A stretch of DNA of 64,000 bases from Escherichia phage phAPEC8. The notes below the pieces were generated by a model. The model ran no database searches and had not been told where the DNA came from. It saw nothing but the letters and a program-made list of their open reading frames with translations. How positions within the stretch are numbered: the stretch's first letter is position 1; every line of letters begins with the position of its first letter. Positions 2,969 through 38,994 of this stretch are shown here, in pieces. The translations under genes were made by a program, and so were the position numbers. The stretch lies in the sequence record NC_020079.1. One strand, written 5' to 3'.

Positions 2969-4084
2969 GTGGCAAATACATATTTAACTAACGTAGACTT
3001 TTCAGGAAAAGCTACGGAAGAGTCACTAGGTGCTCATATTGCTTACACTTTTGATTTTCAAGGTGGAGCGGCATCTGGTTATAATACCCCCCTTTTATTT
3101 AAGTCAGACGGATCTCCAGACATAACTTTTGAAAAGTTAGAAGCTCTCACTAAAATGGGAGAAGATGTTACAGAGTTACGTAAAAGCTATATTCAACAAG
3201 TGATGGATCGCATTTCTGAAAAAGTGCGTGAAAAATTTGAAGCTGGTTGGGATTGGGTTTACGTTATTGATGCTGACTTCGATGCGAACGTTGCAATTTT
3301 CTGTTCAGATAACGGTATGTTCTCTGTTGGCTTTAAAGTTGACGGACTGAATGTTGAAGTTGAAGAGGTTGCTAAACCTGTTGTTCGTGTTACTGATTAT
3401 CAAGTTGTTGATGGTGATGTAATGATCTCCATTGATTTCTTTGAGGACGTTTTAGACGATGCTTTGAGTAATCTCGTTAAGAGTTCCTTGAAACAAAGTC
3501 AAGTTAAAGATTATTTAGTGAAAGCTCACGCTAAAGCTAATACAAACTCTGTGGATGCAGAGGCTAACCCCGCAGGTGATAAATCTGCAAACACAACTGG
3601 AATCAATAAAGGAGAAACCCCTTTGGAAAATATCAACAAAGAAGAATTCCTGAAATCTGCTGAATTCCAAGAACTGATGAAAGCACAGATTGCTGAAGCT
3701 GTAGAAAAAGCAGCAGCAGATGCACGTGCAGCCGCAGAACTTGAAGCACAGGAAAAAATCGCTAAGGCAGAACAGGAAGCAGAAGAACTTCGTAAAGCTG
3801 AACAAGCTCGTATCGAAGAAGAATATACAACTGTTGTTAAATCCTATTCTTTCGTAGAAGAAGACAAAGTTGAAGCTCTCGTTAAATATCTGGTAGACAA
3901 TAAAGATATCGCTGAAACTATCGTCAAAGCATTCGAAAAAGCACGTGCAGAAGTGGACGCAGTTAAGAAAGAATTTGGAACAGAACGTGGTGTTGACGTG
4001 ATCAATACTCAACCTGTAGCTAAATCTTCTTCTGAACTGATTAGTCAGAAAGCTGCTGAACTTAAAAAAGCCCAGAAACAATAA
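2969..4084 (+). CDS. scaffolding-like protein with Ala/Glu/Lys-rich coiled-coil C-terminal half
   Basis: 371 aa; C-terminal half is low-complexity, e.g. AEAVEKAAADARAAAELEAQEKIAKAEQEAEELRKAEQ, typical of scaffold proteins; located just upstream of decoration-like and major capsid genes. Confidence 0.45.
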   Translation: MANTYLTNVDFSGKATEESLGAHIAYTFDFQGGAASGYNTPLLFKSDGSPDITFEKLEALTKMGEDVTELRKSYIQQVMDRISEKVREKFEAGWDWVYVIDADFDANVAIFCSDNGMFSVGFKVDGLNVEVEEVAKPVVRVTDYQVVDGDVMISIDFFEDVLDDALSNLVKSSLKQSQVKDYLVKAHAKANTNSVDAEANPAGDKSANTTGINKGETPLENINKEEFLKSAEFQELMKAQIAEAVEKAAADARAAAELEAQEKIAKAEQEAEELRKAEQARIEEEYTTVVKSYSFVEEDKVEALVKYLVDNKDIAETIVKAFEKARAEVDAVKKEFGTERGVDVINTQPVAKSSSELISQKAAELKKAQKQ

Positions 4085-34319: not shown

Positions 34320-36995
34320 ATGTTTCCAATTCCAATATTTACTATTATGACCAGCACTGGTGTCGTTCCTCTGCCAGCAGGTATTGTTAAAAAAGTAATC
34401 ACTTTAGATTACCCAGATAATGCTGGTAATTCTAACAGCAGTTTAGCAATTTTGCTTAATGATGGTAGATTGTTTACTCAAGGCGCAAACCTTTTTGGTG
34501 AGATTGCAGATGGAACTCGTAGTGCACGATTCAATAATTTCCACTTAGCTTCTACTGTAGTAGCGGATGTGTTTACCGCAGATCGTTGTTTTGTTATTAA
34601 AACTAACAGTGGGGGATGGCAATATTCAGGATTGACAGCAGGATTGGTAGGATCTATAGCAGCAGGTGGTACGGACGCATGTGTAACTACTTGGACCAGC
34701 TTTCCATCTGTAATAACAGGGACTATCTCTTTAGCCAATCTTAAAGAGGTTAAGGGAGGATATAACAACACTCTCTGGTTAATGAATAGTGGTGTTCTTT
34801 ACGGATCTGGTCAAAACACAGTAGGCAGTTTAGGTGCAAGTACTACTAACGAAGTTTCTACTCCTCGTCAGATAACAAGTGCAGCAGTTGCTTTTGATGC
34901 AGGTTACAACCAATGCTCTTATGTCAACAATGTGGGAACCTTGCGTGTTTGTGGAGCTAGTAAAGGTTTAGCAGGTAATAATAACACAACAACAGCTTTT
35001 GTCAATGCCAAGATATCCGCTACTGAAACAGTGTATGTCAAAGATTACATCAATACAGTTTCCCAGACAATAGTTGTAGGAGATACCTCCGGTGGCACGG
35101 GTGCAGTAAACTACTTATATGTTAGATCTAATACAGAAACAACCTACACTAAACTGGATACCTTTGCAGCAGGTTTCTCAACATGGAAATTTCCACCAAG
35201 CCGCCACTCTTTTTTCGTTGGGATCAATAATTCCTTGTGGGCTATTGGTAAGAACTACACTGCAAACTTAGGTTTGGGGTATGATTCTGCGAGCGGAGAT
35301 CCACTTCAAGTGGGAAAACCAGTTAAACCTGAAGGAGTGGGTTCCTGGGATATAAACAAGCTCACAAGCGTTCATACGCTGAATATGGATGTTACTAACC
35401 AATTAGGTTATCAAGGAACCTTTTTCGTTTATAATGGAGATATGTATTATTCCGGTATTTGGAAAGATGGAAAAGCCTCGTATCTGTTCAATAGTGGTCT
35501 AAACTATAATAAATTCACACCAATAGCAAGCTCCGTGATTACGGGTGATATTCTGGCAACTGGCTTAACTACGGATTCTTTAGGAATTTGTATTGTAGGT
35601 GGAACTAAACAGTTGACACATTCTGTTAGCCCAGAAGGAGGTAAACTTTTCAATATTAAATATACTTCTTCTGCCCCTGCAAACATGACAATATCGTCTA
35701 CTGGTTTAATGACTTTCCATGCAGAAGGTGGTTTTGATGCAGGTATGACAGCCTTAAACGCTGAAGGAACAACTTTATCAGATACCTCTGGAGGATATGC
35801 TTCAACATTGAGTGTTTACACCCCTAGCTTATCTGCGATGGATGTAGGAACAACACAAACAATGGTAGCAGAAATAACGCCAACAGGAGCAGCAAGCTTA
35901 CCTGGCATGGTTGTTGAGTATTTCTCTAATGACCCTACGGTAGCAACAGTTGACCCCGTTACAGGCGTTATTACAGCGGTTGCTGATGGAGGTTGTCGTA
36001 TCGGTTGTAGAGCAACTTATCAAGGTGTGGTAACTGCCGAAGATAGTTCTTATCTCACAGTGAATGCTGTGGTGATTGTGATGGATTATGATTTGACGCA
36101 AGAAACTATTCCGGCGGATGTAAAGGTCAACAGGAGTAACCGTTATGCCAGGGCTTCTGGAGATATCCTTGTACCTACAGAGAGTTCTGCTCCCGTAGCA
36201 CCTTTAGAATATGTTGGTACAACTCCACAAGGTAGACGTGTTGTAGCAGCCAACCGTACACATATCTTTATCAACAATAACTTGACAACAGCTTCCCCGT
36301 GGTTGAAGACGAACTTGACAGTCACAGCATCAACAATCAACTCTCCGGTTGGAACTACGGCTAACACTTACAAGTTAACACCTTCTACAACTTCAGGACA
36401 ACATATTTTATCAGCAGTGAATACAGCTTCTGATATTACAGCAGGTAAGCACTGGGCGGCATCCGTATTCTTGAAGCCAGATGGGATCACTAAAGTGAAA
36501 CTCAAATTGACTTCAGGAGATGAGATTAACGAAGGGACTTATGATCTTGTAGCTGGAACATTTACAGGTGCAGATGCAAACATAATCGATATGGGGAATG
36601 GTTGGTATCGTGTAATTCTACACAAAGTGACAGTTGCCAAACAAGCATCTATAACCTATGAGATTATAGCTTTGAATGCAAGTGGATCAGACACTTTCGC
36701 AGGAGATGGTACGGCAGGTCTTATTGCTTGGGTTCCACAGCTTGAGATGGGGGATATGACAAATCCAGTTTGGGCGGGGACACCATTTGTTTGTTCTTAT
36801 GCACGAGACACTACCAGTGCTGTTACCTTCACTATTCCTAAGAATGGACATACTGGCGTGGACATTTACCACACTGATGGTACTGTGCAACGAGAGGTCT
36901 TCACTGGTACAGCTACAACTTGGATGTTGACGTTCACCGCCGCAAGTGCGGATTGGGGATCGAAGTTCATTACAGGTTTGAAATATTACGACTAA
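34320..36995 (+). CDS. tail fibre/adhesin protein with Ig-like (Big_2-type) domain
   Basis: 891 aa; segment VVEYFSNDPTVATVDPVTGVITAVADGGCRIGCRATYQGVVTAEDSSYLTVNAVV resembles a bacterial Ig-like group 2 domain; last gene of the plus-strand arm. Confidence 0.5.
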   Translation: MFPIPIFTIMTSTGVVPLPAGIVKKVITLDYPDNAGNSNSSLAILLNDGRLFTQGANLFGEIADGTRSARFNNFHLASTVVADVFTADRCFVIKTNSGGWQYSGLTAGLVGSIAAGGTDACVTTWTSFPSVITGTISLANLKEVKGGYNNTLWLMNSGVLYGSGQNTVGSLGASTTNEVSTPRQITSAAVAFDAGYNQCSYVNNVGTLRVCGASKGLAGNNNTTTAFVNAKISATETVYVKDYINTVSQTIVVGDTSGGTGAVNYLYVRSNTETTYTKLDTFAAGFSTWKFPPSRHSFFVGINNSLWAIGKNYTANLGLGYDSASGDPLQVGKPVKPEGVGSWDINKLTSVHTLNMDVTNQLGYQGTFFVYNGDMYYSGIWKDGKASYLFNSGLNYNKFTPIASSVITGDILATGLTTDSLGICIVGGTKQLTHSVSPEGGKLFNIKYTSSAPANMTISSTGLMTFHAEGGFDAGMTALNAEGTTLSDTSGGYASTLSVYTPSLSAMDVGTTQTMVAEITPTGAASLPGMVVEYFSNDPTVATVDPVTGVITAVADGGCRIGCRATYQGVVTAEDSSYLTVNAVVIVMDYDLTQETIPADVKVNRSNRYARASGDILVPTESSAPVAPLEYVGTTPQGRRVVAANRTHIFINNNLTTASPWLKTNLTVTASTINSPVGTTANTYKLTPSTTSGQHILSAVNTASDITAGKHWAASVFLKPDGITKVKLKLTSGDEINEGTYDLVAGTFTGADANIIDMGNGWYRVILHKVTVAKQASITYEIIALNASGSDTFAGDGTAGLIAWVPQLEMGDMTNPVWAGTPFVCSYARDTTSAVTFTIPKNGHTGVDIYHTDGTVQREVFTGTATTWMLTFTAASADWGSKFITGLKYYD

Positions 36996-36996
36996 T

Positions 36997-37031
36997 AAAA
37001 AAGGGAACCCGCAAAGGTTCCCTTTTCTTTT
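36997..37031. terminator. bidirectional intrinsic terminator at the convergence of plus and minus transcription arms
   Basis: A6 (36997-37002), stem GGGAACC/GGTTCCC (37003-37022), then TTTTCTTTT; flanked by U/A tracts on both sides so it can serve either strand. Confidence 0.65.
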
Positions 37032-37058: not shown

Positions 37059-37946
37059 TTAGAATGGGATATCATCGTCGAAGTCCATTGGAGGTTCTTC
37101 TTGATTGCTTGGAGTTGGTTCTGGTTGTGGTTCAGGTTTCTTCTCTTCTTTCTTCTCTTCTTTCTTAGGTTGTTCTGCGGAACCACGAATGGCAGCAGCA
37201 ACTTTATCAGACAGAGCCAGAACTTTACGAGCAGAGTCAATCAGATCTTCTACAGATACAGTCTTAATGGTATGGTCTTTACAAGCATTGAGAATAGCGT
37301 GACCAACAGATGCCCCAAGATCATAATCATTAATATCAACGCCACGAGATTCAGCAATTTCAGATTTCAGCGTGACAGTTGCAGATTGAACAACCCCAGC
37401 GATATCGAAAGCATCGCCTTTAACACCATTACGAATCAGTTCCAGTGCACCATTTACTGCGTGACCAGTTTCCAGACCTACAGTATCACGTTTTTTATAG
37501 GACTGCTTAGGAGCAGCATCGTTGGAACCTTTATTGCCAGAAGATTTGTTAGACTTCTGAACACCATCGGTAGACAATACTGTAATACGAGATTTTTTAG
37601 TATTGTAGTAAGTCTTACCGCCTTTATTATCAACGCGATCAATATCAATACTTACTTCTACACCTTTTTCAATAGTGATCCAATTATCACCTTCTTTGAC
37701 TTGCAGGTTTTCATAACCTTCTTTCAGTTCAATGTCACCAAGAGAAATCCAAACACCTTTCTCATCTGGTTTAGCACCTTTCTCTTTCAGAACAAGAGAA
37801 GCTCGGTGAGTTGAAACAATCGTTTTCCCTTCCCAATGAAAAGTTTTAGGTTCAGCGAATTTATCCAGTTTAACGTAGTCTACGATACCAGTTGCATAAG
37901 TTACGGTTTTGCCTTTACGATCAGTTTCAGTATTAATTACGGACAT
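37059..37946 (-). CDS. ssb: single-stranded DNA-binding protein with E. coli SSB-type C-terminal tip
   Basis: 295 aa; C-terminus ...SNQEEPPMDFDDDIPF matches the acidic protein-interaction tip of E. coli SSB (PMDFDDDIPF, from memory); disordered Lys/Glu/Pro-rich linker precedes it. Confidence 0.6.
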   Translation of the reverse strand: MSVINTETDRKGKTVTYATGIVDYVKLDKFAEPKTFHWEGKTIVSTHRASLVLKEKGAKPDEKGVWISLGDIELKEGYENLQVKEGDNWITIEKGVEVSIDIDRVDNKGGKTYYNTKKSRITVLSTDGVQKSNKSSGNKGSNDAAPKQSYKKRDTVGLETGHAVNGALELIRNGVKGDAFDIAGVVQSATVTLKSEIAESRGVDINDYDLGASVGHAILNACKDHTIKTVSVEDLIDSARKVLALSDKVAAAIRGSAEQPKKEEKKEEKKPEPQPEPTPSNQEEPPMDFDDDIPF

Positions 37947-37962
37947 TATTATCTCCTCTACA

Positions 37963-38355
37963 TTACATTAATTTTGCACAGAAAGAGCGGAGTCTTTCCA
38001 TATCATCTTGCTCTAACAGGTATTTACCTTTACCTATTCCAACTCCAATTTCACCATTAGGAAAATGAACTATTTGCACTGGGAAACCTCCGAGTTTAAT
38101 TGTGGCAGCTTTGCCTTCTTCGTCTATAACGTTTCGGATTGTATCTTGCAGTGAAATGAATTCTTTGTTTGTAACAGTGGTTTCAATTATTTCAGATGTT
38201 TCGACACGAGCAGTTAGCTTCTTGTTTCCACCTTGAATAACCAAAATTTGAAAATAAAAAGAGTTGTCAAGACCTACAACATTTTTCTCAACTAGTGTCA
38301 AACTGGTATAGTTTCCATAAACAGTTTCAACAGCTATCTTAGAACGTTCAGTCAT
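37963..38355 (-). CDS. hypothetical protein
   Basis: 130-aa ORF between the SSB and nucleotidyltransferase genes; no recognisable motif. Confidence 0.45.
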   Translation of the reverse strand: MTERSKIAVETVYGNYTSLTLVEKNVVGLDNSFYFQILVIQGGNKKLTARVETSEIIETTVTNKEFISLQDTIRNVIDEEGKAATIKLGGFPVQIVHFPNGEIGVGIGKGKYLLEQDDMERLRSFCAKLM

Positions 38356-38400
38356 TGAATGCTATCCTATCATAAAATGTTTAATATTGTCAAGCTTTAA

Positions 38401-38994
38401 TTACCAAGGAATATCATCTTCTTCCAATCTGGTATCTACTTGAGGTGGACGTGGAACCTTAACCTCTTTCACAAAACGAAGATATGGGAAACGTGTAGCA
38501 ATTTTAATAACATGTTTGGCATCTTCTCTAACATCTTTGTGCAAGAAGCAGATCCCTGTTTCCAAGGTTGTTTCAAAATCTTTAGAATAATAACAGTCCT
38601 TCCCATCAAATGCAGCCTGGCAGATGGACAGATCGAACTCATTTAGAAAGGTTGTCATTACGCTTGGTTCCATAATCATAAGGTTGCAAAGCTGACCATC
38701 ACGTTCAAACTCAAAAACGTGTTTAAGACCAGTAACACCTTCATAATTGTCAGAAGCCTCTTTGTTCCCTAGTTTACGAATATTGGTTCCCATTAAAGCA
38801 GATGCAATTAATCCTTGTATTTGTTCTTCAGTCCGATGTGCAGGAAGGGATGTATAGAAATCCAGATCACGTCCAGCAATATCAAGAATACGCCAATCAC
38901 GAACAGCACCGCCAGCCAAGACAGAATTAGGATCAGCGATCTTTAATATGGTAAGAATTTCTTTGGCAATATTGATTTGTTTTGATTTAGTCAT
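38401..38994 (-). CDS. minimal Pol-beta-type nucleotidyltransferase (CCA-adding / poly(A) polymerase head-domain-like)
   Basis: 197 aa; N-terminal GGAVRDW...DLDF matches the GGAVRD + DxD catalytic signature of class II tRNA nucleotidyltransferases; no body/tail domains present. Confidence 0.5.
   Translation of the reverse strand: MTKSKQINIAKEILTILKIADPNSVLAGGAVRDWRILDIAGRDLDFYTSLPAHRTEEQIQGLIASALMGTNIRKLGNKEASDNYEGVTGLKHVFEFERDGQLCNLMIMEPSVMTTFLNEFDLSICQAAFDGKDCYYSKDFETTLETGICFLHKDVREDAKHVIKIATRFPYLRFVKEVKVPRPPQVDTRLEEDDIPW

Follow-up and report, generated by a model that had tools for sequence, protein, structure and literature searches.

An SSB-like protein of Escherichia phage phAPEC8 with the C-terminal tip of the host SSB on a phage-specific body

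Main finding

In the window analysed here, 64,000 nucleotides of Escherichia phage phAPEC8 (NC_020079.1), one gene of the replication module encodes an SSB-like protein that ends in the same residues as the SSB of E. coli and is otherwise divergent from it. In bacteria, the C-terminal tip of SSB is the hub by which more than 12 replication, repair and recombination enzymes find ssDNA. The phage protein is read here as an SSB with a host-directed, possibly dual-use tip, a reading to which a probability of about 0.55 is given and for which we infer ssDNA binding, oligomerisation and the partners of the tip. The protein belongs, as a shorter, single-OB subtype, to a phage SSB-like family that was noticed recently, and does not represent a new kind of system; the family, the resemblance of the tip and the idea of a link to the host interactome are already in the literature, as prediction and genetics only.

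Gene position and genome setting

The gene and its flanking elements are located as follows.

37059–37946, minus strand: SSB-like coding sequence, 295 aa, ATG start, TAA stop codon at 37059–37061 (open reading frame list; PHROG 4477, E=6e-98)
36999–37026, both strands: bidirectional intrinsic terminator with an 11-bp stem and flanking A-tract and T-tract (terminator scan)
37963–38355, minus strand: 130-aa ORF of PHROG 16560, directly upstream of the SSB-like gene and co-oriented with it
38364–38393, minus strand: sigma-70-like promoter candidate, TTGACA-18-TAGGAT with TG (consensus scan; the count of such sites is no higher than in shuffled sequences)

An AGGAG Shine–Dalgarno sequence is present at 37953–37957, 6 nt upstream of the SSB-like ORF. 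The region is 98–99% identical to genomes of Phapecoctavirus (megablast), which comprises the phAPEC8-like E. coli myophages of about 150 kb within the subfamily Stephanstirmvirinae, and in the Phapecoctavirus genomes of at least 98% identity the gene is labelled in GenBank either as 'single-stranded DNA-binding protein' or as 'hypothetical protein'. The SSB-like gene closes the 3' end of a leftward replication module, which runs from primase/helicase through DNA methylase, Pol A-type DNA polymerase, three small ORFs, nucleotidyltransferase and the 130-aa ORF to the SSB-like gene, while the terminator separates the latter from the convergent tail-fibre gene on the plus strand. The PHROG 16560 ORF always adjoins the SSB-like gene in contigs of the Phapecoctavirus/Justusliebigvirus type, with a length of 130–135 aa and a conserved C-terminal half, and the two genes are possibly co-transcribed from the candidate promoter at 38393–38364. 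This ORF was also considered as a conserved partner common to the Vequintaviruses and was rejected as such, being without similarity to bas52_0086, the gene upstream of Bas52_0087.

The complete genome of the phage ESCO37 (149 kb) was assembled, and its SSB-like protein is 100% identical to that of phAPEC8. Neither tblastn nor an ORF search found a canonical SSB in this complete genome, and one candidate for a second SSB at ESCO37 3538–3816 (tblastn E=0.64) was rejected as an unrelated goF-like/unknown protein. As seen in the ESCO37 genome, the phage also encodes its own ligase, exonucleases and a UvrD-type helicase.

On the other side of the terminator, the tail-fibre gene (window 34320–36995, plus strand) encodes 891 aa, against 846 aa for its counterpart in a relative (L004:5427–7967, minus strand), although the phages are otherwise 99% identical, and the terminator differs between the two as well. 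Since this divergence starts right at the stop codon of the SSB-like gene, the SSB-like/tail-fibre junction looks like a recombination hot spot that combines host-range and endonuclease cassettes.

The C-terminal tip and its conservation

37062–37097, minus strand: C-terminal tip EPPMDFDDDIPF, aa 284–295, the same 12 residues with which E. coli SSB ends

The SSB-like protein ends in ...PSNQEEPPMDFDDDIPF. Its tip EPPMDFDDDIPF is identical at 12/12 positions to the end of E. coli K-12 SSB (NC_000913.3; PDB 1eqq and 7f2n), and a PSN motif stands ahead of the 12 identical residues in both proteins. A preliminary description of this DNA, made from the letters alone, had recognized the E. coli tip in the last ten residues and had regarded the rest of the protein as divergent; the identity in fact spans 12 residues, and by BLASTP the protein resembles E. 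coli SSB significantly nowhere else. Chance would be far from sufficient to explain 12/12 identical residues at the very end of a protein. Across the 149 kb of the ESCO37 genome, an acidic C-terminus with a final aromatic residue was found in 3 of 1,456 ORFs.

At the DNA level, 28 of the 36 bases of the tip match E. coli ssb, and 8 of the 12 codons differ, all of them synonymously, which indicates that the identity of the tip is held by selection on the peptide and not by recent host DNA. For the Ser upstream of the tip, the phage uses AGC and E. coli uses TCT, codons that differ at all three positions. A recent capture of host ssb DNA was rejected on the grounds of these synonymous differences and of the fully different Ser codon.

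Among 119 homologue clusters, Pro at position -2 and Phe at position -1 are invariant (119/119), positions -4 and -6 carry a near-invariant Asp, and position -3 is occupied by I, V, L or C. The full motif DFDDDIPF occurs in 55/119 clusters, and positions -7 to -12 also match the host sequence, while the remaining tail is hypervariable. As the search behind these clusters had included the tail, with a possible bias, a tail-free family profile was built and run against 1.84 billion representatives, which yielded 303 matches at E<=1e-3. Among the best 150 of these 303 matches, the end is [ILVMCF]PF in 106; for most of the others it is xPF, [IL]PW, IPF plus one residue or the tip plus an extension, and about six are short helical-only proteins without a tail. 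Judging from this sequence conservation, the tip is a defining, strongly selected feature of the PHROG 4477 family. When tip variants were compared with hosts, the named hosts were all Enterobacterales with the same SSB tip, the metagenomic relatives carrying no host label. The consensus stays on the host sequence over at least 8 positions in lineages that are about 30% identical elsewhere, and a constraint fixed on the host tip across lineages as divergent as this would be most simply imposed by host proteins.

Domain architecture

The structure was modelled with AlphaFold2 from a 64-sequence alignment (mean pLDDT 81.7), and the following domains precede the tip.

37563–37946, minus strand: N-terminal OB-fold domain, aa 1–128, predicted all-beta with pLDDT about 90 over aa 1–125
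37488–37562, minus strand: disordered basic linker, aa 129–153, net charge +6, pLDDT <50 for aa 133–149
37185–37487, minus strand: four-helix domain, aa 154–254, pLDDT >90 over aa 156–253
37098–37184, minus strand: disordered K/E/P-rich tail linker, aa 255–283, pLDDT 45–60, highly variable among homologues

The preliminary description had made its SSB assignment depend on an OB fold in the N-terminal region, and AlphaFold2 does predict such a fold there. The OB domain is conserved family-wide, together with conserved aromatic and basic residues on its surface, and this divergent OB fold would bind ssDNA. A BFVD fold search returned almost only 'uncharacterized' viral proteins. The four-helix domain is the best-conserved part of the family (D154, G157, G161-H162, T190, K194, G211, V214-G215 and A217) and is a candidate oligomerisation domain that probably mediates self-association. 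The whole C-terminal tail has a net charge of -7.

Family membership

Membership in the canonical SSB family (Pfam PF00436 / NCBIfam PRK09010) was rejected, as the Pfam, NCBIfam and PDB profile searches matched the tail or nothing. In the Pfam search, the SSB-like protein had no SSB match even at E<=1; NCBIfam NF006533 scored 23.2 bits against a cut-off of 260, with a match limited to aa 254–295; and a profile of the OB domain gave no match (0) among all PDB sequences. The PHROG families annotated as 'SSB' likewise match only aa 246–295, that is, the tail region. The full-length match is PHROG 4477, of 'unknown function' (E=6e-98), in two stretches with the middle domain missing. Outside the tail, E. 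coli SSB and the canonical family show no sequence homology to the phAPEC8 protein, which furthermore has an additional four-helix domain and a linker rich in K/E/P and not in G/Q/P. Two traits of canonical SSBs are nevertheless shared, namely the predicted OB-fold structure of the DNA-binding domain, and a disordered linker (low pLDDT at aa 255–295) followed by the acidic D-D-D-[IL]-P-F end.

A word-indexed search found 139 homologues, all of them without Pfam domains and on phage-sized contigs, and tblastn extended the distribution over Phapecoctavirus, Justusliebigvirus, Vequintavirus and relatives infecting Klebsiella, Cronobacter, Pectobacterium, Salmonella and Enterobacter. The helical motifs D-x2-G-x-E-T-G-H and G-A-S-V-G-H-A are present in the phAPEC8 protein, and residues D154, G157, G161, H162, G211, V214, G215 and A217 are invariant or at least 90% conserved. 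About half of the PHROG 4477 family is of the short form, with about 275–300 aa and no middle domain. As an observation on the records themselves, about 20 entries named 'Campylobacter phage' (host C. jejuni; MG065650, MG065635, MG065690 and others) are at least 99% identical to E. coli Phapecoctavirus/Vequintavirus sequences, and 'Acinetobacter phage ABPW7' is 98.8% identical to such sequences; these 'Campylobacter' and 'Acinetobacter' host labels are probably wrong or due to contamination.

Relation to Bas52_0087 and DRT10

One characterised relative is Bas52_0087 (QXV84166.1) of the Vequintavirus RudolfGeigy/Bas52, which has been described as an SSB-like trigger of DRT10 (UG17) in an April 2026 preprint (bioRxiv 10.64898/2026.04.29.721553). 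Bas52 mutants escaping the DRT10 reverse-transcriptase defence map to Bas52_0087, and the protein was assigned two OB folds, a disordered C-terminus and an FDDDIPF tip like that of E. coli SSB on the basis of Phold and AlphaFold2 (10.64898/2026.04.29.721553). It is required for DRT10 activation, while its expression alone is neither toxic nor sufficient as a trigger, and Bas52_0087 was suggested as a possible competitor of ExoI (SbcB), whose overexpression weakens DRT10 defence (10.64898/2026.04.29.721553). DRT10 restricts Vequintavirinae and Stephanstirmvirinae, the latter being the subfamily of phAPEC8 (10.64898/2026.04.29.721553).

Bas52_0087 matches PHROG 4477 at E=1e-173, and by BLASTP it shares 35% identity with the phAPEC8 protein in the OB domain (E=8e-13) and 33% in the helical domain and tail (E=2e-16). 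In this alignment, the counterpart of the escape residue D252 is the near-invariant D154 of the phAPEC8 protein, and that of Y351 is A250, which lies in the last helix. With 408 aa, Bas52_0087 contains an extra middle beta domain of about 100 aa, whereas the phAPEC8 protein has the 25-aa basic disordered linker instead; an insert of about 100 aa is also found at the position of the phAPEC8 linker in the homologue P0079 (pairwise alignment), and Vequintavirus homologues have their second beta domain at this place. The tip of Bas52_0087, SFDDDIPF, matches the host over fewer residues than the phAPEC8 tip EPPMDFDDDIPF.

Extension beyond the tip and endonuclease insertion

In 16/120 clusters, residues continue beyond the tip as DDDIPF-[AS]P[ILV]GLQY followed by 7–10 more (14–17 aa in all), for example DDDIPF-APIGLQYGRNFLHCF and variants.

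L004:4886–5399, L006:3401–3448 and L008:3422–3896: extension/endonuclease loci in relatives, homologous to the window position directly after 37062

In two contigs, a gene for an HNH-type endonuclease of phrog_2340 starts inside the extension, and homology to the plain alleles stops exactly at the last tip codon. A third contig has an identical 15-aa extension without the endonuclease, with 6 synonymous and 0 non-synonymous differences from the first. This pattern, the same peptide without the endonuclease and only synonymous changes, indicates that the extension peptide is under selection, and the idea that the extension is a read-through scar of endonuclease insertion was rejected for the same reasons. 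Extension and endonuclease occur together in the cultured phages ZCKP1, Mt1B1_P17, nieznany and PsgM04F, while in DE16 and ECO340P2 the extension appears to be present alone. The presence of the extension in cultured phages means that a buried carboxylate of the terminal Phe is compatible with plaque formation, and given this capping of the tip in relatives, a free tip is not indispensable.

Other arrangements were observed around the same gene. Salmonella phage NINP13076 (Seunavirus) has a 145-aa stand-alone ORF (L014:2549–2986) without an OB domain, in which the helical domain is represented by its second half alone, followed by tail, tip and extension (…DFDDDIPFAPIGLQYGRNFIHCI); another match lies elsewhere in this record. 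Several helical-only representatives of about 190 aa are without any tail. In phage WalterGehring/Bas51, the SSB-like gene, with the tip YEFDDSIPF, is directly followed downstream by a 'putative homing endonuclease' (L003:4236–4814), whereas Bas52, with the tip SFDDDIPF, has no endonuclease there. There is thus a hint that the 3' end of the SSB-like gene is a preferred landing site for endonucleases, with Bas51 as another case.

A tip-like end on the neighbouring nucleotidyltransferase

38401–38994, minus strand: nucleotidyltransferase, 197 aa, PHROG 10174, two genes upstream of the SSB-like gene

The C-terminus of this enzyme, ...RLEEDDIPW (38404–38424), is a second motif in the module that resembles the SSB tip. 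Both in the window and in the whole genome, an end of the form [DE][DE]IP[FW] is found only in the SSB-like protein and the nucleotidyltransferase, the acidic tail of the RNR beta subunit being the usual, different one. In 10/10 close orthologues, DDIPW (or SFPW) is kept and the preceding linker varies, and orthologues of 37% identity on Justusliebigvirus-type contigs have no such tip-like end. The IPW and LPW ends that occur within the SSB-like family indicate that Trp is an accepted variant of the tip. Orthologues of the nucleotidyltransferase have precomputed matches to Pfam Gad2 (anti-Gabija nucleotidyltransferase); for the phAPEC8 enzyme itself, Gad2 membership was not reproduced by a Pfam search, which gave only PolyA_pol (E=0.03–0.07), and it is retained as a hint.

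From the extension and the nucleotidyltransferase together, the host SSB tip could be pictured as a portable address label, used on the SSB-like protein and on the nucleotidyltransferase, which a separately selected extension of 15 aa can cap, this extension travelling with an HNH homing endonuclease targeting the tip DNA; this picture is speculative and, as a whole, unlikely. If it held, the label would deliver the enzyme to proteins of the host SSB interactome or to SSB-coated ssDNA, and capping would provide switchable access to the host SSB hub, possibly as an evasion of defences that sense the hub.

Proposed role of the tip

According to the reading favoured here, the protein would serve as the phage's own ssDNA-binding protein in replication and recombination, from a family unrelated in sequence to bacterial SSB. 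Its OB fold would coat phage ssDNA and its four-helix domain would self-associate, while the flexible acidic tail would present the residue-for-residue copy of the host SSB C-terminus. The tip might then plug into the SSB-recognising pockets of ExoI, RecQ, PriA, chi, RNase HI, RecO, DnaG and other host proteins, so that these factors may be drawn to phage DNA or kept from it by competition, and the same tip might also be open to phage replisome proteins. With regard to the length of the conserved stretch, the host SSB partner RecO reads up to the last 9 SSB residues. The earlier suggestion that the phage protein may hijack or titrate the host SSB interactome is therefore upheld in part: conservation of the host sequence in the tip makes it plausible and favoured, whereas the lack of toxicity of the homologue Bas52_0087 when expressed alone argues against massive titration. 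What counts against over-reading the host as the target is the T7-like replisome, the phage's own ligase, exonucleases and UvrD-type helicase, the phage SSB tails that dock phage proteins, and the capping of the tip in cultured relatives.

In the main rival reading, the tip mainly docks phage proteins in the manner of T7 (the Pol A-type polymerase, the primase-helicase or a recombinase), its match to the host tip being due to shared ancestry, convergence on an optimal peptide or phage enzymes with inherited SSB-Ct pockets. T7 gp2.5 is an OB-fold SSB of a phage-specific, non-canonical type whose acidic tail has an aromatic residue at its end, and the phAPEC8 tail shares this sequence feature, with an acidic end and a family-invariant terminal F. 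F232 of gp2.5 is required for binding T7 DNA polymerase, and gp2.5 functions alongside a polymerase of Pol A type and a primase-helicase, both types being encoded by phAPEC8 as well. In T7, the tails of the SSB and the helicase share one polymerase site, and the conserved DDIPW end of the nucleotidyltransferase in the same module recalls this case. A second precedent is the SSB of HK620, whose last six residues (NDYPPF) are required for loading Sak4 on SSB-coated ssDNA; here too the C-terminal hexapeptide of a phage SSB recruits a partner, but the fold is canonical, the tip has diverged from that of the host, and the demonstrated partner is the phage recombinase Sak4. A phage-internal interface could drift away from what the host has, and the T7 and HK620 tails did so, whereas in the present family even very divergent lineages retain the consensus DFDDDIPF, and positions upstream of the acidic core are retained too. 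Docking of phage proteins as the main function of the tip is regarded as somewhat unlikely.

It might also be argued that the tail is chiefly an intramolecular regulator, in which the acidic tip folds onto the OB fold as a DNA mimic and tunes ssDNA affinity and cooperativity, as in E. coli SSB, T7 gp2.5 and T4 gp32, with recruitment of partners being secondary. The charges would suit such a mechanism (-7 for the tail against +6 for the linker beside the OB domain), and competition between tail and ssDNA is established for related systems. Charge mimicry, however, selects for acidity and not for an invariant Pro-Phe with a hydrophobic residue at -3, as seen in the 119 clusters; the invariant Pro-Phe end is the signature of a pocket-binding peptide and not of a charge mimic, which makes this explanation improbable. 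It is very improbable, finally, that the protein acts as a decoy in place of a working SSB, as a multimer of helical domains that does not itself coat ssDNA but displays host-type tips, by which ExoI/RecQ-like enzymes would be soaked up and the ends of phage DNA protected: stand-alone ORFs with helical domain, tail and tip but no OB domain do exist (NINP13076 and short representatives), and the DRT10-escape mutations fall in the helical domain and not in the OB fold, but the OB domain with its aromatic and basic surface is kept throughout the family, the genome has no other SSB candidate, and Bas52_0087 by itself is not toxic.

Significance

For the reading as an SSB with a host-directed tip, the host-like tip on an unrelated body is a natural probe of the SSB hub, and the phage protein could redirect host nucleases and helicases on phage DNA or compete for them. 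The family has been newly linked to DRT10 activation and to the dosage of ExoI, and the feature reaches the phAPEC8-like phages in a shorter, single-OB form. While the underlying idea is not new, there is practical value for annotation and for the design of experiments: PHROG 4477 and many GenBank entries are still labelled 'unknown' or 'hypothetical'. Across about 300 divergent clusters of the family, no part of the tail is as constrained as the tip, and natural variants with a plain tip, a capped tip or the tip on a second enzyme exist for testing its role.
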